Shown here piece after piece: positions 1-8,572 of a DNA stretch of 46,660 bases. The position numbers and the translations under genes are program-made. The notes below the pieces were generated by a model. That model was not told where the DNA came from. It saw nothing but the letters and a program-made list of their open reading frames with translations, and did no database searches. The number at the start of each line of letters is the position of its first letter. Within the stretch, counting starts at the first letter, position 1. The stretch lies in assembly GCA_029861425.1 (NCBI GenBank), contig JAOTZH010000003.1, positions 1 through 46,660 of the forward strand. The letters run 5' to 3'. The DNA is from Gemmatimonadota bacterium. GTDB lineage: Bacteria; Gemmatimonadota; Gemmatimonadetes; Palauibacterales; Palauibacteraceae.

Positions 1-2
1 AC

Positions 3-593
3 TTGCTCTGTCCGACCGGGTTCTCGGTGCGCTGGAACGGGAGGCGGGATCTCGAAAGCATCAGCTTCAAATGGGATGACACGCCGCACGAAGCGGTGGC
101 GTCGCACTTCGGAAGCGGCGTGCTCACCTTCACCCCGGGGTACCTCTTCCGAACGACGAAGGATCACAACATGTGGGTGAAGGGTGCCCCGAACATGCCC
201 AAGGACGGGATCGTCCCCCTCGAGGGTGTGATAGAGACCGACTGGGCCCCATTCTCTTTCACGATGAACTGGAAGATCACACGTCCCAAGCACTGGATTC
301 GGTTCGACAAGGGCGAACCGATCGCGCGGCTCGTGCCGTTCCCGCGCCATTACCTCGAGAGCTACCGGCCGCGGATGGCTCCGATCGCGAGCGACACCCG
401 GATCTTCACCCAGTATGAGCAATGGAGAGAGTCACGCTCGCAGTTCATCGAGGACCTCGCCGCGCAGGAGGAGGAAGCGGTCCAGTCCGGCTGGCAACGG
501 ACATACGTGCGCGGCGAAAACATGCGGGGAACCAAGATGCAGGATCACCAGACGAAGCTGCATCTGCGGGAGTTCATCCCACCAGGCGACTGA
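3..593 (+). CDS. DUF6065 family protein (5'-truncated by window edge)
   Basis: Motifs SHFGSGVLTF, GYLFRT, G.PN.PKDGI.PL.GV.ETDW.PF.FTMNW are characteristic of DUF6065; ORF is open from the window start. Confidence 0.8.
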   Translation: MLCPTGFSVRWNGRRDLESISFKWDDTPHEAVASHFGSGVLTFTPGYLFRTTKDHNMWVKGAPNMPKDGIVPLEGVIETDWAPFSFTMNWKITRPKHWIRFDKGEPIARLVPFPRHYLESYRPRMAPIASDTRIFTQYEQWRESRSQFIEDLAAQEEEAVQSGWQRTYVRGENMRGTKMQDHQTKLHLREFIPPGD

Positions 594-630
594 GTCCCGC
601 TGCATGGCCCGCCGAGGTTCGCCTGGACAG

Positions 631-760
631 GCTAACTGTAGCTCGCTAGTCCCGGGAGGGGACTTGCCGTCGAGACAGTCGTGCCAAACACTACTCCCAT
701 AGTCGTGCCAGCATTCATAGTCGAGTGAGCGTTGCCCGAAACGGGCAGACTCGAGTCGTG
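631..760. promoter_or_regulatory. Repeat-rich putative operator/promoter region
   Basis: AGTCGTGCCA direct repeat at 677-686 and 701-710; CATAGTCG at 698-705 and 716-723; inverted ACTA-N6-TAGT at 690-703; hairpin TGCCCG-AAA-CGGGCA at 733-747. Confidence 0.4.
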
Positions 761-776
761 TGGGGGGGTGGTGAAG

Positions 777-1019
777 ATGAGGATACGAGAGCTCCCGGAT
801 CTCATGGATGTCGCACCGGCTCCGCGACCCGTTCTCCGCGCGCGGGAGCCCCGACCGAGTTCGGTCAGACCCGCCCCAACGTTCCTGCTGGTCGCCGGTC
901 TGGCGGTCCTGGCCCTCGTGGACTGGCGGGCGACACTCGGCGTCGCCCTGGTCTGCGTCGCCCGAGACGTACAGCTCCGAAACACTCTCAGAGGCGTCCT
1001 CCCGATCAGGGGCCGCTAG
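777..1019 (+). CDS. Small hypothetical membrane protein (~80 aa)
   Basis: ATG at 777; hydrophobic stretch TFLLVAGLAVLALVDWRATLGVALVCVA; co-oriented with neighbours. Confidence 0.5.
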   Translation: MRIRELPDLMDVAPAPRPVLRAREPRPSSVRPAPTFLLVAGLAVLALVDWRATLGVALVCVARDVQLRNTLRGVLPIRGR

Positions 1020-1092
1020 CGCGCTCCCTCCATTGGGGCAGCTATATCCGCGGGGGGGCGATTACGAGGTGGGCGGGCTAAGGGAGATGCAT

Positions 1093-1560
1093 ATGAGCGA
1101 TAGACGGATAGCGCGACCGTTGTTGACCAGGCGCGAGCTGTCTTTCAGGCAGCGCCTCGACTACCTCGAGTTGGGTCTCCGGGCCGAAGTCGGGCTCGAG
1201 GAGGCCATCCGACTCCTATCGCCGCGCGACAGTCACGAAGCCGACCCCAGTCACCTCGAGCGCCTCTATCGTTCCGTAAGACGGCTCGACGGCGCATGGC
1301 TGACCGTCCATGCCGATCTGACCTCCTTTATATCGGGGGATCTCAAAGTCAGACCGCCCGCGCGGTGCGTCAGTCGCAGAGTGGACGAGCGGACAGCGCT
1401 GCTCTCGTCCATGCCTGGGGACGTGCTCCCTTCGGTCGTGCTGACTCTGGCGGGAGACATCATCGATCGATGGGCCTCGACTCGGCCATGTGGTGGACTC
1501 GAAGAGGAGAGGGGCGCGGCCGAGCGGCATCGCTCGGGACTGGATGCACGCGAGATGTGA
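1093..1560 (+). CDS. Hypothetical alpha-helical protein A1 (paralog of 2439-2969)
   Basis: AGGGAG RBS at 1081-1086 then ATG at 1093 (alternative ATG 1087); ungapped similarity to the 2439-2969 protein (RLDYLE.GL..E.GL.EA.R.L, RRL..A...VH.DL.S..S.D.K.R) supports that both are coding. Confidence 0.75.
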   Translation: MSDRRIARPLLTRRELSFRQRLDYLELGLRAEVGLEEAIRLLSPRDSHEADPSHLERLYRSVRRLDGAWLTVHADLTSFISGDLKVRPPARCVSRRVDERTALLSSMPGDVLPSVVLTLAGDIIDRWASTRPCGGLEEERGAAERHRSGLDAREM

Positions 1561-1657
1561 GGATTTCGGACCTTGACGATAGACCGGCGTCGGAAGGCGG
1601 CAGGGACCGCCGTTCGGGCGAACAGACGAGGGCACCCGACGGGTTAGGGGGGCGGAC

Positions 1658-1891
1658 GTGGACACGAAAGAGATGTGCGATCGGGCGGCGATTCGTAACG
1701 CACTGGCGCCGCGAGAGCGCCAGGTACTCACAGAGCTTCTGGACGGGCGCACCGAAGCGACGATCGCCCGTCGTCTGGCGATCTCCCCACACACGGTGCA
1801 CGCACATATACGGAGCGTCTATTTAAAGCTGAGGGTCCACAATCGGGTCGAGCTAGTCCGGCGAGTCCTTTCACACCACGAAACTGCCTGA
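1658..1891 (+). CDS. Stand-alone LuxR/GerE-type HTH transcriptional regulator L1
   Basis: L.PRE.QVL..LLDG.T...IA..L.IS..TV..H...VY.KL.V..R.EL matches the LuxR C-terminal HTH; no receiver or sensor domain. Confidence 0.9.
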   Translation: MDTKEMCDRAAIRNALAPRERQVLTELLDGRTEATIARRLAISPHTVHAHIRSVYLKLRVHNRVELVRRVLSHHETA

Positions 1892-2013
1892 AGATCGGGA
1901 CATAATGTCGGATACTGAACCATGGTGTAAGGAAAGTTCGGGGTCGGGCCACTAACAGTCTGGAGCCAGGGTGGCGAGGGGAGTGAGAGGTGGCGTGAAC
2001 CAGGGGAAGGGCG

Positions 2014-2241
2014 ATGGACACGAGAGAGCTCACCGAGCGGGCGGCGCAGCGAATCCCATTGGGCCCCCGCGAGATGGAAGTCCTGGAGAAACTGCTTGAC
2101 GGAGAGACGGAACGGGCGATCGGCCGGGCCCTCGACATTTCCACCCATACCGTTCACTCCCACGCCCGCAGTCTCTATCTGAAGTTCGATGTCCATAGCC
2201 GCCTCGAGCTCTTCCGGACCCTTGTCCTGAACAGCGGATAG
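2014..2241 (+). CDS. Stand-alone LuxR/GerE-type HTH transcriptional regulator L2
   Basis: Same HTH signature; 41/75 residues identical to L1 in an ungapped manual alignment. Confidence 0.9.
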   Translation: MDTRELTERAAQRIPLGPREMEVLEKLLDGETERAIGRALDISTHTVHSHARSLYLKFDVHSRLELFRTLVLNSG

Positions 2242-2438
2242 CGGACGGCCACACCCCGTAAACTGCCGGTACGCCCCCCCCAAGACAGTCGCCCGAACCG
2301 GCTACTCCGCACGTGTCAGACTCTCATCACTAGGCCATATATGCGGCTTGCGAGCGACATATGCGGTCCGGACACTATCTGCGTGGCTGGCGGGGACAAC
2401 CCTCGCCTCTGTGAGGGGCTGGGGGATGGGGGGGCCGG

Positions 2439-2969
2439 GTGGATCACGGACACGACGCAGACAGGCCCGCTCGCAAAGTCGCGAGGAGGGACGCGAGTCT
2501 CCGGGAGCGACTCGACTACCTCGAGTCCGGGCTGGCCACGGAGCTGGGACTGCGCGAGGCCGTGCGGAGACTGGGTCTCCAGGGACTCAAGGCCGAAGAG
2601 CCCTGCCAACGGGACCGCCTCGAGGTCCGTATCCGTCGACTCGAAACCGCCTGCGACGACGTACACGACGATCTGATCTCCTACCTCAGTCGGGACGGAA
2701 AGCTCAGACGGCTGGCGTCGGCGGACTCCGAGATGATCCGCGCGCGCGCCCAGCAGTTGATCGGCCTTCCGAGCGACTCCGTTCCCTACGAGATCCTGGA
2801 GATCGCCAAGGAGCTGGTTGAGGCGTGGGGTCTCGCGTATTTGGAGGCAGAGGCTCGGGGCAGCCCCGAAAGTGCATCGCCATCCGAGGGGCACCCCGAC
2901 CGCATCGAGAGCGAGAGGCCCAGCGCGAACGCGCCCCCCACGCGTCCTGGTATCGGTCGCACCGCATGA
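2439..2969 (+). CDS. Hypothetical alpha-helical protein A2 (paralog of 1093-1560)
   Basis: GTG start; 45/115 ungapped identity with A1; its TGA overlaps the ATG of the next gene (ATGA at 2966-2969). Confidence 0.8.
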   Translation: MDHGHDADRPARKVARRDASLRERLDYLESGLATELGLREAVRRLGLQGLKAEEPCQRDRLEVRIRRLETACDDVHDDLISYLSRDGKLRRLASADSEMIRARAQQLIGLPSDSVPYEILEIAKELVEAWGLAYLEAEARGSPESASPSEGHPDRIESERPSANAPPTRPGIGRTA

Positions 2970-4681
2970 GCCGCGGCCGCCGTGGTGATCTGGACTCCGG
3001 GGAGCTCTACGAGACTCTCAGGAGCCGGGCGTCGCCGGAAGAGAATACGCCGCCCCGACGAGCCGTCTTTCTGACACTCGCCTGTCTGCTGGCCGCGATG
3101 ACAGTGAGCCTGACGGACCTCGGCTCCGCCGCCCGCTACTCGAGCTTCGTCTGGATCCTGGCGATTCTGCCGGTCTTCCTGCTGTCCTATTACCGGGGTT
3201 GGCAGGGGGCCAGCCTCGCGGCCGTCTTCGGCATGCTCGCCCTGACTGCCGTCGAGGTGATCGGCCGCGTTCAGGGTGGTGCGATCGACTGGTGGCTCGT
3301 CGGTACGGCGACGACGCTACTGGTCCCGATCACCATCGGTTCGGGCATGGTGAGCGAGGTCCTCCGGCGGCAGCGGGCACTCGCCATGGAAATGGCGTAT
3401 GGCGACCCTATGACGAACGTCGCGAACCGGCGGTGGCTCCGGGAGGCCGTCGCCCAGGCGATCAAGGAGGCGCAGGAGAACAACGTAGGTGTCGGCCTGA
3501 TCTTCCTGGATCTCGTGGACTTCAAGCGGGTGAACGACCGCCATGGTCATGTGGTAGGGGATGAGGCCCTCCGACAGCTCGCCGACAGGCTGGTGGGCGG
3601 CTGCCGTGGTGGCGACTCGGTCGCTCGCGTGGGGGGAGACGAGTTCGTCATCTGTTGCGCCCGCCTGACTTCGATCGACACGGCGGTGAGGATCGCCAAC
3701 CGTACGCTGGATTCCCTCTCGCACCCGGTCCGCGCCGCCGGACACGAGATCTATCTCAGGGCCCGCATCGGCGTAGCGTGGTACCCTGAGCACGCCGCGA
3801 CCTTCGATGAGCTCCTCTCGCATGCGGATCCCGCGTCGACCGGGCGCGGAAAGCCCGCTGGAGGCGAGATCGTGGTCTTCAACCCGACCGAGGACGCGTC
3901 CGCCGAGGACCGCCAGCTGATCGAGCGCGACCTGCGTCAGGCCGTGAGGAACGACGGCCTGTTCCTCGCGCTGCAGCCCATCGTCACCGCCGGCAGCACG
4001 TCGATCGTCGGTGCCGAAGCGCTCGCGAGACTCGACCACCCGCGTCTGGGCATGGTACAGGCACATGCGTTCGTCGCCACCGCCCGGGCCACCGGGCTGA
4101 TCTACGAGCTCGACATGGCGGTCCTCGACATGGCCATACGACAGGCTCGGCCAGACAAAGGCGCGGGGCTCGAATGGCTCGCCGTCAACGTGTCCTACGA
4201 ATCGCTGTCGACGTACGGCTTCCTCCAGGAGCTCGAGAGGTTGCTCGACGTGCACGAGCTACCCGCCGAGCGACTCGTCGTCGAGGTCTCGACTGGCCCG
4301 GCGATCCGGAACTCGGACTGGATCACTGCCACCCTCCAGTCGGTCCGGGGCCTCGGCGTCCGTCTGGCGCTCGACAATTTCGGACCCCGCACGTTCTCGC
4401 TCGCGTACCTGGAAGACGTCGAGGCCGACTTCATCAAACTGGATCGATCTCTCGTCCAGGGGGTCGGCTCGATCCCGCAGAACGAGCGGGTGGCGCGCGG
4501 GATCATCGGGCTGGCCGATGCACTGGACATCACCACCACGGCGGTCGGTGTCGAAACTCCCGAACAGCTCTGCTGGTTGCGTGACAACGGGTGCACACTC
4601 CTCCAGGGATTCCTCACCGGGCACCCGATCCGGGCATCGGACTGGGCGACGGCGACCGCGGACCAGGCAGTCGCCGGATGA
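2966..4681 (+). CDS. Membrane-anchored GGDEF-EAL protein (diguanylate cyclase with degenerate EAL domain)
   Basis: About 4 N-terminal TM helices; DPMT.VANRR, DL.DFK.VND.HGH..GD, RGGD I-site, RVGGDEF; C-terminal LQPIV..AEALAR, AVNVS, IKLDRS, LLQGF. Confidence 0.92.
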   Translation: MSRGRRGDLDSGELYETLRSRASPEENTPPRRAVFLTLACLLAAMTVSLTDLGSAARYSSFVWILAILPVFLLSYYRGWQGASLAAVFGMLALTAVEVIGRVQGGAIDWWLVGTATTLLVPITIGSGMVSEVLRRQRALAMEMAYGDPMTNVANRRWLREAVAQAIKEAQENNVGVGLIFLDLVDFKRVNDRHGHVVGDEALRQLADRLVGGCRGGDSVARVGGDEFVICCARLTSIDTAVRIANRTLDSLSHPVRAAGHEIYLRARIGVAWYPEHAATFDELLSHADPASTGRGKPAGGEIVVFNPTEDASAEDRQLIERDLRQAVRNDGLFLALQPIVTAGSTSIVGAEALARLDHPRLGMVQAHAFVATARATGLIYELDMAVLDMAIRQARPDKGAGLEWLAVNVSYESLSTYGFLQELERLLDVHELPAERLVVEVSTGPAIRNSDWITATLQSVRGLGVRLALDNFGPRTFSLAYLEDVEADFIKLDRSLVQGVGSIPQNERVARGIIGLADALDITTTAVGVETPEQLCWLRDNGCTLLQGFLTGHPIRASDWATATADQAVAG

Positions 4682-4715
4682 CCTCGCCGAAAGAGGCTAG
4701 TGGCTGTCGGCTAGC

Positions 4716-4743
4716 GACTATCGGCGATCGCGAGCCGATAGTC
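4716..4743. terminator. Hairpin between convergent genes (possible bidirectional terminator)
   Basis: Perfect 10-bp stem GACTATCGGC / GCCGATAGTC with 8-nt loop; no U-tract. Confidence 0.5.
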
Positions 4744-6049
4744 AGGACGAGCCACGGATCTGGTTCCCCGCGATCCAGACCGATTCGATCGATCTGAGGT
4801 TGGCGATGTCGGACAGGGGGTCGGCTCCAAGGATCAGGAAGTCCGCCCACTTGCCCGGCGTCAGCGTGCCGATGTCGTCGCGACCGATGCAACGTGCCGC
4901 GTCGCCGGTCGCCGCGACCAGGATATCCGCGGGTGACATACCCGCTTCCGCCATCAGCGCCAGCTCCATGTGCTCGTAGAAGCCCTGGAAGCGCCCGGGC
5001 GGCCCCGTGTCGGTGCCCATGGCGATCGTCACGCCCGCGTCCGAGAGGGCTTTCACGTTCGACTGGGCCTGGCGAAGGGCGGCCTTGTAGGCCTGGGCGG
5101 TCGCGCTGTTGCGGACGCGTTCCTGGCGTTCCGGGGCCTGGAGCGCTTCGACTACCGCGGGATCGGCCTCCGCGAGGAAGAACGGGTCGGAAAAGAAGTC
5201 CGGAGTGTCCTCGTAGACGAACGTGGTGACTTCGCGGGCTAGCGTCGGCGAGTAGCAGACGTCCGCCTCGACCAGAGCCCGCGCCAGCTCACCGTCGACG
5301 TCGGTGTCACGAACGCTGTGGACTACGAAGTCGACCCCCGCGGCCAGCAGGCCCTTCGCGTCGTCCAGGTAGAAAAGGTGCGCCGCGACAGGGAGCCCCA
5401 CCTCGTGGGCGCGGTCGATGACCGCCTGGTAGATCTCGGGGGTCATCTTCGCCGTGGCTCCCAGGTTGTCGTCGACGCGGATCTTGATGAAGTCTGCACC
5501 GAGCGCCGCGTTGCCGTCGATCATCTCGCGGACGGCGCTCTCGGTCTCGCCGGCGACGACGGCCCCGGCGACGTACAGGCGCGCCCGGTCGAGATCGGCC
5601 GAGTCCTGCTCATCCCGCACGACGACGCCCTCCTCGGCATCTCCCCCCAGGCTCAGAACGGTCGTAACTCCGTAGCGTGCGTAGAGCCCCAGCTGGGCGA
5701 GCACGTTCTCGCGCGAGTAGTGGCCGGCCTCGAGTCCGCGTGTGTCCCCCACGTGGCCGTGGGCATTGATCAGGCCGGGCACGAGGTAGCGTCCGGTGAC
5801 GTCGATGATCGCCGCTCCCTCGGGGACGGTTACCTCATCCGCCCCTCCCACCGCGGCAATCCGCCCGTCGGCCCCCACCACCATGACGCCATTCACGATG
5901 GGGCCACCACCACCGCCATCCACGATCGTGGCGCCGACGTAGGCTCTCCCGCTTCTTTCGTCCGACGCGGTCGTGGGCGCCTCCTCCGTGGGGGCGCACG
6001 CCGTGACGACGAGCAGAGTCGCTGTAGAGACGCGGTTGCTAACAGACAC
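4742..6049 (-). CDS. Amidohydrolase family lipoprotein (imidazolonepropionase-like)
   Basis: PGLINAHGH metal motif, FIKIRVDD, AAH, VH, MGTDTG, G.L.PGK.ADF; GTG start with GGGAGG RBS; lipobox-like VTAC. Confidence 0.85.
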   Translation of the reverse strand: MSVSNRVSTATLLVVTACAPTEEAPTTASDERSGRAYVGATIVDGGGGGPIVNGVMVVGADGRIAAVGGADEVTVPEGAAIIDVTGRYLVPGLINAHGHVGDTRGLEAGHYSRENVLAQLGLYARYGVTTVLSLGGDAEEGVVVRDEQDSADLDRARLYVAGAVVAGETESAVREMIDGNAALGADFIKIRVDDNLGATAKMTPEIYQAVIDRAHEVGLPVAAHLFYLDDAKGLLAAGVDFVVHSVRDTDVDGELARALVEADVCYSPTLAREVTTFVYEDTPDFFSDPFFLAEADPAVVEALQAPERQERVRNSATAQAYKAALRQAQSNVKALSDAGVTIAMGTDTGPPGRFQGFYEHMELALMAEAGMSPADILVAATGDAARCIGRDDIGTLTPGKWADFLILGADPLSDIANLRSIESVWIAGNQIRGSS

Positions 6050-6137
6050 GCTTTCCTCCCTAGTCGGATCGGATGTGGTCGAAGCAACGTCGACACCGCT
6101 CCGGGCGCCGGCCAGACCCGCTGCGGAGGTCGACCAC

Positions 6138-6311
6138 CTACCCCGCCATCTCCGCCTCGAGTCGCGTCGCCACCTCGGGCGAGAACTCCAGTTGCGTCGC
6201 GAGGCTCGAGAGGATCGACCGCTCGCGCTCCGAGACGTCCCTATCTTCGAGCGCCCCCTCCAGCGCCGCCCGATACACCTGGTGCTTCTGACGGTCCCGG
6301 TACTCCGGGTT
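6138..6311 (-). pseudogene. Start-less 57-codon gene remnant resembling a TerB-like C-terminal helical domain
   Basis: The minus-strand frame between TGA (6312-6314) and TAG (6138-6140) reads NPEYRDRQKHQVYRAALEGALEDRDVSERERSILSSLATQLEFSPEVATRLEAEMAG; protein-like; not in the ORF track. Confidence 0.55.
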
Positions 6312-6443
6312 TCACTCCGCACGCACTCTCAAGCCCGCGGCCGGAGAGGCCGTCATTCGAACCGCCGTGGGGCGTTCATCGGGCGATATCAGCCGGGGCT
6401 GACGCCCTGCGCTCCCGACGCCGCGCGGGTGGGCGGGCCTCCT

Positions 6444-7145
6444 CTAGACTGTGAGGAGGGGTCGGTTCTCGAAGGGCTGCTCGCGATAGGTCGAGTTGCC
6501 GAATCGTGTGAGGGCCTGGATCTCGCCGAGGACGCGGACGGCGCCCGTCTTCTCCGCGGTGCGGGCCGACGGCCGGTTCGACGGAGAGATCGCGCGCCAA
6601 CCCAGGTCGAATCCCGCTTCCCGGGTCCACGCGAGTCGCGCGCCGGTCAGCGCAGTCCCGATCCCCGCGCTGCGCTCCCGCCGAATCACGAAGAGATCCC
6701 ACAGGTAGGCAGCACTGTCGGGGAGGGCGAGCGGCAGCCCCTCGATCGACGGGTCGATCCGGGTGGACATCCATGTGTACCCGATCACCCGGTCACCTCT
6801 CCAGGCCAGCAGGCACGCACGCCCCGATCGAGCTCGAAGCTCGAACTGGCGACGGACGGCGCTCGTCAACAGCGGGGCGACCGCATCCCACTCGTCCGCA
6901 AAGGCCGACACCCGGACTCCCTCGGGCACGCGGGCCTCGATCAGCTCGTCGATCCGCTGCTCGATGACGAGATACCGCTCCCGGCGGTACACCCTGCCCG
7001 CCAACCCCCGGGCCACCCTGGACACGAGCTCGCGGGTCCCGGCCGTCTCCCGTCCGACCCGAAGATCACGAACCACGCGCTGGAGGGTTCCCGGCTCGGC
7101 TCGCTCGACGGAGGACTCGACGGACAGGGGTCGGCGCTCGCTCAA
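6444..7145 (-). CDS. GNAT family N-acetyltransferase
   Basis: VIGYTW, AYLWDLFV.R.ERSAGIGTAL (acetyl-CoA motif A), N.PS.R..EK.G; probable TTG start overlapping the upstream stop. Confidence 0.75.
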   Translation of the reverse strand: MSERRPLSVESSVERAEPGTLQRVVRDLRVGRETAGTRELVSRVARGLAGRVYRRERYLVIEQRIDELIEARVPEGVRVSAFADEWDAVAPLLTSAVRRQFELRARSGRACLLAWRGDRVIGYTWMSTRIDPSIEGLPLALPDSAAYLWDLFVIRRERSAGIGTALTGARLAWTREAGFDLGWRAISPSNRPSARTAEKTGAVRVLGEIQALTRFGNSTYREQPFENRPLLTV

Positions 7146-7714
7146 CGAGGGCCGGGGACCAGGCCCTCCGGGATCGTCTGCCCGGGTCCCTCGAAGTCGG
7201 TCGTGATCGCCGCGATCCACCAGCGGACGCCATCGAACGAGAGCTCGATGCTGTCGAGCCCGCGGATCTGTCTCGGTGGGGTCGTCCCGCCGACGAGCGG
7301 CTCGAACACCACCCAGGCGTGTGCGAGCCCCCCGAACTCGTCGACTCGTTTCGCGGCGATGGTCTCGTAGAAACCCTTGTCTTCCAGCTCGGCGTCCCTG
7401 AAGAAGTCTCGCCAATCCTGGATGAAGCCATCCACGGACATCACACGCATCGGCTGGTTCCCCCGCGGAGAGAAGACGATCACGGCTTCCTCCAGGAAGA
7501 CCTCCCGGAACATCTCCCAGTCGGGTTCGGGGCCCGGGCCGAACGAGACCATCTCGTAGAGCGCGTCGATCAGCTGGCCGGGGTCGAGCGCGGCCTGGTC
7601 GATCGAGGGTCGGTCTCGGACATCCTGGGCTCTGAGGGCGGACACGCCCCCGCTCGCTATGAGGACGAAGGCCAGGAGCGTCGTGGAGAATCGTCCCGGG
7701 ATGGTTTCACTCAT
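7142..7714 (-). CDS. Secreted NTF2-like (DUF4440-type) protein
   Basis: Signal peptide ending ALRAQ; IDALYE.VS....PDW..FR.VF, GFYE......D.FG.LAHAW, RG.DSIEL..DG.RWWI pattern. Confidence 0.7.
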   Translation of the reverse strand: MSETIPGRFSTTLLAFVLIASGGVSALRAQDVRDRPSIDQAALDPGQLIDALYEMVSFGPGPEPDWEMFREVFLEEAVIVFSPRGNQPMRVMSVDGFIQDWRDFFRDAELEDKGFYETIAAKRVDEFGGLAHAWVVFEPLVGGTTPPRQIRGLDSIELSFDGVRWWIAAITTDFEGPGQTIPEGLVPGPR

Positions 7715-7751
7715 GATCCTCTCCATGCGGACGGCGCGCTGGCCACCCGGC

Positions 7752-8453
7752 CTAGAAGGGGTTGGTCGCGAAGACGGCGAACTCCGGCACGAACCCCCGG
7801 CTGTCGACCTTCAGAGCGCCGATGATCGCGTCCGCGATCTCCCGGGCCCGAAGCTTCTTGGGCGACGGCGGTTGGTCGAAGCCGAGCTTCGACGCGAACT
7901 CGGTCATGACCTCGCTCGGGTTCACCAGCATTACGCGCACATCGTGTCGTCTCAGCTCATCTCGCCAGCACTCCGTCATGCCCCGGAGAGCGAACTTCGA
8001 AGAGCTGTATGCGGTGGACATCTGGCCACCGCGGAGCCCGGACGTCGACGAGATGTTGATCAACTCGCCGGACCCCTGCGCGATGAACTGCTTCGCCGCT
8101 TCGCGCCCCATCAGGAACGCACCGAACACGTTCGTCCGATAGACACTCTCGAGCTCTTCGAGCTCCATCTCGACGAGCGGTTTGAAGAGCCCGATGCCCG
8201 CGTTGTTTACGAGGATGTCGAGTCGCCCGTGCTTCTGCACGACTGTCGCGACCGTCGCGATGGCGTCGGCTTCGACGCCCACGTCCCCGGCGATCCAGTC
8301 GACCCCCAGTTCGTTTGCCCTGGTTTCCAGGACGTCCGCCCGACGCCCCGTGATCGTGACGCGGGCGCCATTCTCCTTCAGCGCCTCCGCGATTGCGGCC
8401 CCGATGCCTTCGCTGCCGCCCGTGATGAGCGCCACGCTTCCGTTCAAGTCCAT
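7752..8453 (-). CDS. Short-chain dehydrogenase/reductase (SDR)
   Basis: TGGSEGIG, NNAG, NISS, YSSSK catalytic motif. Confidence 0.93.
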   Translation of the reverse strand: MDLNGSVALITGGSEGIGAAIAEALKENGARVTITGRRADVLETRANELGVDWIAGDVGVEADAIATVATVVQKHGRLDILVNNAGIGLFKPLVEMELEELESVYRTNVFGAFLMGREAAKQFIAQGSGELINISSTSGLRGGQMSTAYSSSKFALRGMTECWRDELRRHDVRVMLVNPSEVMTEFASKLGFDQPPSPKKLRAREIADAIIGALKVDSRGFVPEFAVFATNPF

Positions 8454-8572
8454 TTGAGGCTCCTGTCTATCGGTCGAGAGAACGAAAAGGAGGCGTTAGG
8501 TTGTCCCCCGCAATCGCGCGCGCCTGTCGCGCCTCGAAAAACGTCCGTTTGTGGCACATCAGGAGTTCCTTC

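Follow-up and report, generated by a model that had tools for sequence, protein, structure and literature searches.

Small helical proteins that control LuxR-family transcription regulators, such as TraM, QslA and RcsA, are well known, the targets of TraM and QslA being the ligand-binding or receiver domains of their regulators. The small regulator GerE of Bacillus subtilis is, for its part, controlled via its own expression. As stated in the extracts of the literature cited here, RapF binds the GerE-type DNA-binding domain of ComA itself (PMC3246441), the Synechocystis regulator PedR interacts with thioredoxin (PMC4361706), the helical anti-sigma factor RsiG is armed by cyclic diguanylate (c-di-GMP) and carries the signature E(X)3S(X)2R(X)3Q(X)3D on its coiled-coil helices (PMC8325347), and local c-di-GMP signalling modules are made of an enzyme plus a dedicated effector or transcription factor (PMC10211494). 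In this work we describe a five-gene cassette of a Gemmatimonadota bacterium (NCBI GenBank assembly GCA_029861425.1, contig JAOTZH010000003.1, positions 1 to 46,660 of the forward strand, the whole stretch of 46,660 nucleotides (nt) being called “the window”), in which two proteins of a small, unnamed family, A1 and A2, enclose two stand-alone helix-turn-helix (HTH) proteins of the GerE type, L1 and L2, and are followed by a gene of c-di-GMP metabolism of the GGDEF-EAL type. We suggest, with somewhat less than even confidence, that these genes are a local c-di-GMP signalling module gained by horizontal transfer, where the A proteins would work as non-enzymatic adaptors, with A2 closest to the enzyme. 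Observed or computed here are the gene content and paralogy, the overlapping genes, the insertion of the block, how the A proteins fold by prediction, and how rare their family is. Judged by their sequences, the enzyme and both L proteins belong to known families and are ordinary in them, with the A family being the unnamed part, and a full-text literature search, which covered main texts, gave no description of such a cassette, in agreement with an earlier note on this DNA that had not recognised its architecture from any described system.

That note, made from the sequence alone, had placed five co-oriented genes here, and all five were found where it put them and on the same (+) strand, as follows (lengths in amino acids, aa):

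1093-1560, + strand: A1, 155 aa, orphan protein with a predicted four-helix-bundle fold.
1658-1891, + strand: L1, 77 aa, GTG start, stand-alone GerE/LuxR-type HTH protein.
2014-2241, + strand: L2, 75 aa, stand-alone GerE/LuxR-type HTH protein, paralog of L1.
2439-2969, + strand: A2, 176 aa, GTG start, orphan protein with a predicted four-helix-bundle fold, paralog of A1.
2966-4681, + strand: GGDEF-EAL gene, 571 aa, putative N-terminus of four transmembrane (TM) segments, from hydrophobic stretches located by eye.

The spacers within the cassette measure 97, 122, and 197 nt, and, as the earlier reading had it, the A2 stop overlaps the start of the enzyme gene, here by 4 nt (ATGA at 2966-2969, with the A2 stop TGA at 2967-2969 and the enzyme ATG at 2966-2968). 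Both paralogous pairs were recovered as well, with A1 and A2 sharing 45 of 118 residues (38%, E-value (E) 4e-23), and L1 and L2 sharing 40 of 68 (59%, E 3e-27), near the 41 of 75 counted before and with the recognition helices ISPHTVHAH and ISTHTVHSH exactly as claimed. The named frames of the cassette have a codon-position GC pattern consistent with coding, and the A1 start at 1093 agrees with where the orthologs P0008 and P0011 begin. The genome to which the window belongs is 90% complete, all genomes compared here being of metagenome-assembled quality, and it holds no third A copy (two matches, A1 and A2) and one further, weaker L-like HTH on its contig C100.

The strongest sign that the five genes form a functional package is that they lie in an insertion, the borders of which are two conserved convergent core genes:

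594-4741 (about 4.15 kb), no strand assigned: accessory island between the two core genes.
3-593, + strand: DUF6065 core gene on the left flank, outside the island (PF19541, E 7.9e-73; 81% identical to the copy of the close relative G030).
4742-6322, - strand: amidohydrolase core gene on the right flank, outside the island (PF01979, E 1.8e-23), with its true start probably downstream of 6322.

In G030 the junction is collinear with positions 1-579 and 4763-5938 of the window by blastn, with 44 nt between the two blocks, and in both close relatives inspected, G030 and G017, the DUF6065 and amidohydrolase genes are adjacent and convergent by tblastn; among the three genomes compared, only the window's own has five genes between them. 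Since the flanking core genes are neighbours in G030 and G017, the five genes came as one unit, and the stretch from about 594 to 4741, which contains them and a 500-nt leader, is an insertion. The amidohydrolase gene is present in 34 of the 36 genomes of the genus, the copies most similar to that of the window being those of G030 (78%) and G017 (77%). The GC content is 0.62-0.65 over positions 1-2500 and 0.64-0.71 over 2501-8500. That the island was acquired horizontally is part of our joint best reading, to which as a whole we give a little under an even chance. The earlier proposal of one system stands in so far as the five genes behave as a unit and A1 and A2 belong to a real, uncharacterised family, whereas its cognate pairing of A with L is not supported.

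A1 and A2 belong to a family that has no name and is very rare. A profile built from A2, A1, and P0006, and run with HMMER against 1.84 billion representative proteins at E<=0.001, gave 47 matches, 13 of them at E<=1e-10 and six at E<=1e-30. One apparent relative, P0009 (2081 aa, E 2.5e-35 through 32 stretches), is the translation of a tandem repeat with a unit of about 65 residues and a false positive, and was excluded from all A-family alignments; the 44-row alignment is also free of the fragments P0040, P0048, P0049, and P0052 and of P0005, the window's own protein, and the 43-row alignment A8 additionally leaves out P0039. Among the 41 further matches aligned, 40 stand alone, with lengths of 117-175 aa, and the remaining one, P0039 (229 aa), is an A protein with a basic N-terminal extension, with four additional matches being fragments of 82-110 aa. 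The 46 credible relatives reach down to about 20% identity, share conserved columns, and are thinly scattered across distant lineages. No Pfam family was met in more than three of the 44 aligned members, all with chance-level E-values; NCBIfam and PHROGs families each matched at most one of the 44; PADLOC gave no match for A1 or A2; and a sequence-profile search of the PDB with the family reached only E 0.014 at best. The earlier description of both proteins as unfamiliar agrees with this, given that A1 has no Pfam match at E<=1 and A2 has only a chance-level one to Uds1 (E 0.048).

Both A proteins are confidently predicted to be four-helix bundles. The AF2 model of A2, made with the family alignment, has a pLDDT of 84.9 and a pTM of 0.72, with helices at residues 21-51, 55-84, 94-108, and 116-134 and, from about residue 140 on, a C-terminal tail modelled with low confidence, and the A1 model (pLDDT 91.8, pTM 0.80) has the same four helices, at 18-42, 52-81, 91-106, and 113-128, plus a fifth at 135-152. 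Foldseek searches of the PDB with the two models gave nothing at E<=0.001, the weak best rows being generic up-down helical bundles, such as a pectin-methylesterase inhibitor (E 0.31) and the Tar ligand-binding domain (E 0.13-0.3, TM-score about 0.2); a BFVD fold search gave no match at E<=0.001 either, and the ESM Atlas gave no usable match for A2 and just unnamed “hypothetical protein” clusters for P0014. The family has no invariant column and only three nearly invariant ones, which are Ala, Leu, and Pro, and this, together with the confident helical bundle, fits a binding or scaffold protein; we thus infer such a role for the family, with no catalytic signature seen. In a maximum-likelihood tree of 46 members, A1 falls in a clade with P0008, P0011, and P0010 (64%, 47%, and 46% identical to A1; support 100/96), and A2 in another with P0006 and P0007 (60% and 49% identical to A2; support 100/99), adjoined by P0012 (95/84), the A1 and A2 clades being sister groups (99/80). 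Such separate, supported sister clades, each with metagenomic orthologs, indicate that the duplication is old and that both copies were retained, and so both paralog types have been maintained in several lineages ever since.

Compared with the TraM-TraR, QslA-LasR, and RapF-ComA systems, the likeness is that a LuxR-family regulator has, encoded close by, a small protein of mostly helical structure, for which control by direct binding is proposed. In contrast to TraM, QslA, and RapF, the A proteins have no sequence or fold match to any solved protein (PDB, Foldseek), and thus no similarity that would place them among the TraM/QslA anti-activators; L1 and L2 lack the ligand-binding or receiver domain of the TraM and QslA targets, the linkage between A and regulator is not conserved in other A-bearing genomes, and binding is here only proposed.

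L1 and L2 are clear members of the GerE family (PF00196, cut-off 23.5 bits), with E 1.3e-18 and 66.8 bits for L1, the HTH of which spans residues 15-69, and E 3.2e-15 and 55.9 bits for L2, with the HTH at residues 16-68. Their polypeptides have no domain besides the HTH, the open frames being just 102 and 80 aa long. The PDB sequences nearest to L1 are the DNA-binding domains of NarL and FixJ, and L1 also matches Sigma70_r4_2 (E 2e-06). With about 75 aa and a GerE HTH only, L1 and L2 are similar to B. subtilis GerE and Synechocystis PedR, but they are not PedR equivalogs (NF052366), reaching 40.8 and 29.2 bits where the cut-off is 120, with L1 covering positions 2-60 of the 74 of that model at E 1.9e-10. 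L1 has one Cys near its N-terminus (residue 7, EMCDRAA, in the extension that precedes the HTH) and L2 has none, and a Cys is also found at the aligned position (RLCDRVA) of the nearest L-like protein (G017, L033:1501-1722, - strand). The Cys of L1 recalls the redox-controlled mini-LuxR protein PedR, even though L1 is no PedR equivalog. A word-based search with L2 returned only itself, from two candidates. The premise of the earlier note that sensor-less GerE-type proteins depend on a partner is not general: GerE is set by its own expression, and PedR interacts with thioredoxin.

The enzyme of the cassette carries an EAL domain (PF00563, E 5.2e-57, 193.4 bits against a cut-off of 31.3) and a GGDEF domain (PF00990, E 1.4e-35, 122.9 bits against 23.8), and its translation has an intact GGDEF motif, an RGGD five residues upstream of it as the RxxD site, and the EAL triplet. 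Both of its catalytic domains align over their full length with those of two solved tandem GGDEF-EAL proteins, 5m3c (E 2.8e-66) and MorA of Pseudomonas aeruginosa (4rnf, E 3.5e-60). The enzyme differs from these two in having a short, putative 4-TM module without PAS as its N-terminus, and in the EAL metal site, which reads DNFG where the MorA chain reads NNFG and 5m3c DDFG, followed by a loop GPRTFS in place of the GTGYSS of its relatives. The loop after a DDFG-type site matters for EAL activity. The enzyme may make c-di-GMP, degrade it, or both, and the statement that the cassette controls c-di-GMP synthesis was too specific because the protein holds both GGDEF and EAL. Its description as a membrane protein agrees with four hydrophobic stretches seen by eye at about residues 33-127, whereas the match to MASE1 (PF05231) is partial and sub-threshold (27.1 bits against 29.8, profile positions 178-254 of 299). 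The 571-aa start is consistent with the lengths of five of the six closest orthologs (553-585 aa; the sixth has 524 aa). These orthologs, P0054-P0059, are 57-68% identical and metagenomic, with P0055 on a 27-kb contig, and a search of 401 genomes of the phylum, which scored the best three candidates per genome and hence has limited sensitivity, found none in the 400 other genomes sampled. The window's own genome has at least 10 GGDEF-EAL matches at E<=1e-30, this enzyme among them; similar numbers, from five to eight each, were counted in G001, G004, G005, and G017, and 19 of the 23 other genus members searched had zero at that threshold. It seems that c-di-GMP signalling has expanded in one sub-lineage of the genus.

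In the adaptor reading that we favour, where we infer all physical contacts, the sites bound on DNA, and whether the enzyme works towards synthesis or breakdown, the membrane-anchored GGDEF-EAL enzyme would make and/or degrade c-di-GMP, transcription would be the output, through L1 and L2 bound to DNA as homo- or heterodimers, and A1 and A2 would act as adaptors through protein-protein contact within the module. Given that A2 is translationally coupled to the enzyme, A2 most likely works with it, and given that A1 lies directly 5' of L1, the A proteins may join the enzyme, or the local c-di-GMP coming from it, to the L1 and L2 regulators. As the A2-enzyme coupling is the tightest link of any A gene, we rank a function of A2 with the enzyme at least equal to a pairing of A with L. 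Like the described local c-di-GMP modules, this cassette packages a c-di-GMP enzyme gene with transcription-factor genes, and it differs from them in having no known c-di-GMP-binding domain and in that its candidate effector, A, falls in no described family. As the partner of A, the enzyme is a possibility that we hold to be rather unlikely, and we judge L1 and L2 in the same way; a partnership with both, or one depending on c-di-GMP, appears improbable, and that the partner is none of these is somewhat easier to believe, while still doubtful. The most specific form of the proposal, with A as a new class of small four-helix adaptors, the two old paralogs of which would couple the membrane c-di-GMP enzyme to the sensor-less pair of GerE mini-regulators, c-di-GMP itself perhaps joining the parts, is quite unlikely to hold in full.

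The genomic distribution of the A family, together with a few further results, weighs against the adaptor module. Besides the window's own genome, the A profile found the family in one of 35 genomes of the genus (G001) and in four of 144 of the order (G001 again, with G036, G507, and G508, which are three of three genomes of the genus g2). In a phylum draw of 401 genomes, own included, with the best 10 candidates per genome scored and therefore limited sensitivity, there was no credible match in the 400 others, two weak matches inside frames of 827 and 1135 aa being taken as coiled-coil noise. The four other A-bearing genomes have a single short-type A gene each, about 30% identical to A1 and A2, and none of them shows A linked to a GGDEF or a GerE gene. 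The co-occurrence of A with LuxR-type genes, which the earlier note had put forward as its check, was thus not seen in these admittedly distant homologs, all four genomes lacking a GerE gene on the contig of A: the nine GerE-profile matches in them all lie on other contigs, and tblastn with L1 gave no GerE match in the A-bearing loci L006, L007, and L015-L018. The A-L linkage, then, is not conserved among distant A homologs of about 30% identity. The neighbours of A vary instead from genome to genome. In G001 (L007, G001:C164, 3870-8941) a short-type A gene, inside which the contig ends, follows a series fliD-fliS-(fliT-like)-flgM-like, and in G036 (L006) A comes after a gene for a TonB-type receptor and a 316-aa membrane protein and faces PMT_2/GT2 glycosyltransferase genes; the G036-like locus L015 repeats the layout found upstream of the G036 A gene, with frames of 758 and 315 aa and then A. 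Conversely, L1-like domains occur in 17 of the relatives' 41 genomes, own included, and the two small stand-alone L-like genes inspected, on G017:C241 (50% identical to L1) and G005:C234, have no A neighbour. None of the 47 profile matches fuses A to an HTH, a GGDEF, or any other recognisable domain. The closer A orthologs sit on short metagenome contigs (1.3-6.5 kb), and none of their sizes (6475, 2541, 1254, 2116, 2618, and 1915) equals that of a contig with an enzyme ortholog. Within the cassette, promoter and terminator scans stayed at chance level and gave no operon evidence. Two scans of metagenome contigs, one with the A2-type alignment and the other with the short-type one, confirmed no relative, and a viral-contig scan and a tblastn against plasmids found nothing. 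The orthologs of A and those of the enzyme share their kinds of source (NCBI, JGI, ENA, and Logan), which is compatible with the presence of the island in a few other populations and is no proof of it.

Against this background, several other explanations of the A proteins have to be considered. The one proposed by the earlier note was that A1-L1 and A2-L2 are cognate pairs, the A proteins acting on L as TraM does on TraR or QslA on LasR, whether as anti- or as co-activators, so that a duplicated two-state switch would set the expression of the enzyme. This is a rather improbable account in our judgement. What speaks for A1 and A2 as cognate partners is gene order, with A1-L1 and L2-A2 arranged in mirror fashion and both families duplicated, and the idea would also agree with the inheritance of the island as a unit, with the absence of a sensor domain from L1 and L2, and with the existence of anti-activators of a GerE-type DNA-binding domain, of which RapF-ComA is the case on record in the extract cited above (PMC3246441). 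This pairing is not found in the four other A-bearing genomes, L-like proteins exist without A in G017 and G005, no L gene is as tightly linked to an A gene as the enzyme gene is, and the unequal divergence of the two families (38% for A1/A2 vs. 59% for L1/L2) would not be expected if a co-evolving pair had been duplicated once, with the reservation that rates can differ. When A2 (residues 1-140) and L2 were modelled together as a complex, with alignments of 44 and 16 rows, respectively, the score was 0.01, the mark to reach being 0.32, and this argues neither for nor against binding.

A1 and A2 might instead be c-di-GMP receptors that are loaded by it and then bind or release the sigma-region-4-like L proteins, by analogy with the RsiG-(c-di-GMP)2-WhiG complex of Actinobacteria. 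The resemblance includes a long antiparallel helical pair in the A proteins, their many arginines, a context with a c-di-GMP enzyme to which A2 is translationally coupled, a target HTH of the sigma-region-4 kind as suggested by the Sigma70_r4_2 score of L1, the A homolog of G001 adjoining an anti-sigma-28-like flgM gene, and the RsiG precedent itself as given in the extract cited (PMC8325347). On the other hand, the defining RsiG signature occurs in none of the 44 members, in strict or relaxed form, the targets would be GerE mini-proteins instead of a sigma factor, and the phylum is another one; furthermore, of two other motifs, W[FLM][TS]R is in none of the 44 and the PilZ-type [DN]xSxxG in one, no RsiG entry is among the Foldseek matches listed, and for most family members in other genomes no c-di-GMP context is on record, all of which makes such a receptor improbable. 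It is more credible, while still a minority view for us, that A1 and A2 have a job unrelated to L or to the enzyme, with the island shared by descent only and with the L proteins being ordinary GerE-type regulators, constitutive or controlled by expression. The three different neighbourhoods of the A homologs and their thin spread over distant lineages would fit that case, and stand-alone GerE-type regulators can act without a partner, as GerE does; against it are the retention of both A paralogs since an old duplication, flanking two L genes in a 4-kb island, and the 4-nt overlap of A2 with the enzyme gene. Finally, high-GC DNA yields many long shadow open reading frames (ORFs) on both strands, and A1 and A2 might have been chance ORFs of this kind, an explanation of next to no probability that is already refuted by the 46 credible relatives with their conserved columns and by the confident AF2 models, the coding-like codon-position GC pattern adding to this.

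Should the adaptor circuit be real, it would be a transferable and self-contained arrangement of enzyme, adaptor, and transcription factor for c-di-GMP, of a kind so far undescribed. If A connects the enzyme with the GerE mini-regulators, it would be a new effector or adaptor family in c-di-GMP signalling and would show second-messenger control of sensor-less LuxR-type proteins in the Gemmatimonadota, a phylum in which regulation is little studied. If A is unconnected, what is left is an accessory island in which a GGDEF-EAL gene accompanies two small regulators and a rare orphan, of value for annotation and unsurprising. The A family, being compact and confidently folded by prediction, is easy to test by expression.

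The following elements of possible regulatory DNA lie in or next to the cassette:

2334-2366, + strand: tandem 13-nt direct repeat GCCATATATGCGG / GCGACATATGCGG in the L2-A2 spacer, 20 nt from start to start; candidate operator.
4707-4738, no strand assigned: GC-rich inverted repeat in the gap where the enzyme and amidohydrolase genes converge, with 10-nt arms and one mismatch (palindrome scan).

The direct repeat has an AT-rich palindromic core and is located 73-105 nt 5' of A2. The only two CATATG sites of the 46.6-kb window (1090 and 2358) are both in the cassette, against a total of 1.94 expected by chance. The inverted repeat is possibly a bidirectional terminator, although a simple terminator scan did not call this hairpin, which has no T run. 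We treat the repeat, the CATATG pair, and the hairpin as leads only. Two further operator candidates were dropped. The motif TCGCCCGAACSGG, seen in three spacers (732, 1609, and 2289) and derived from the same spacers in which it was counted, occurs 15 times in the window against 12.0 +/- 3.7 by chance, and CATATGCGG-like sites are at chance in their overall number. The three spacer sites, at 732-744, at 1609-1621 on the - strand, and at 2289-2301, share a TCGCCCGAAC(C/G)GG-like word. No Rfam family, c-di-GMP riboswitches included, was detected in positions 1-5200, and no tRNA in positions 1-8000.

As for the other A-bearing loci, the position of the G001 A gene after flgM raised the idea of a FlgN-like protein (PF05130), which was discarded: one of 44 members matches, at E 0.036, G005 has an flgM block without A, and the window's own genome, within its 90% completeness, has no FliD, FliS, or FlgM by tblastn. 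Flagella are thus apparently variable within the genus, G001 having the fliD-fliS-flgM block and the own genome none. The 316-aa protein directly 5' of A in L006 (G036:C27, 4931-5881, + strand) has a C-terminal hydrophobic segment and no Pfam match, and its N-terminus resembles, by eye, a degenerate BY-kinase or MinD-like domain.

Two DNA runs of sediment metagenomes, from two studies, contain the stretch, and no RNA run is among the holders listed; the two DNA runs gave no island variants, their contigs being short and the listed island pieces identical. The leader of the island holds one more frame:

732-1019, + strand: possible ORF of a small membrane protein, with 95 aa if it starts at TTG 732 and 80 aa if at ATG 777; uncertain gene.

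NCBIfam and PADLOC searches gave no match for this ORF. It has one or two hydrophobic stretches and a coding-like codon-position GC content of 0.75/0.53/0.77, unlike the overlapping frame that extends A1 upstream, and it could be a sixth gene of the island.

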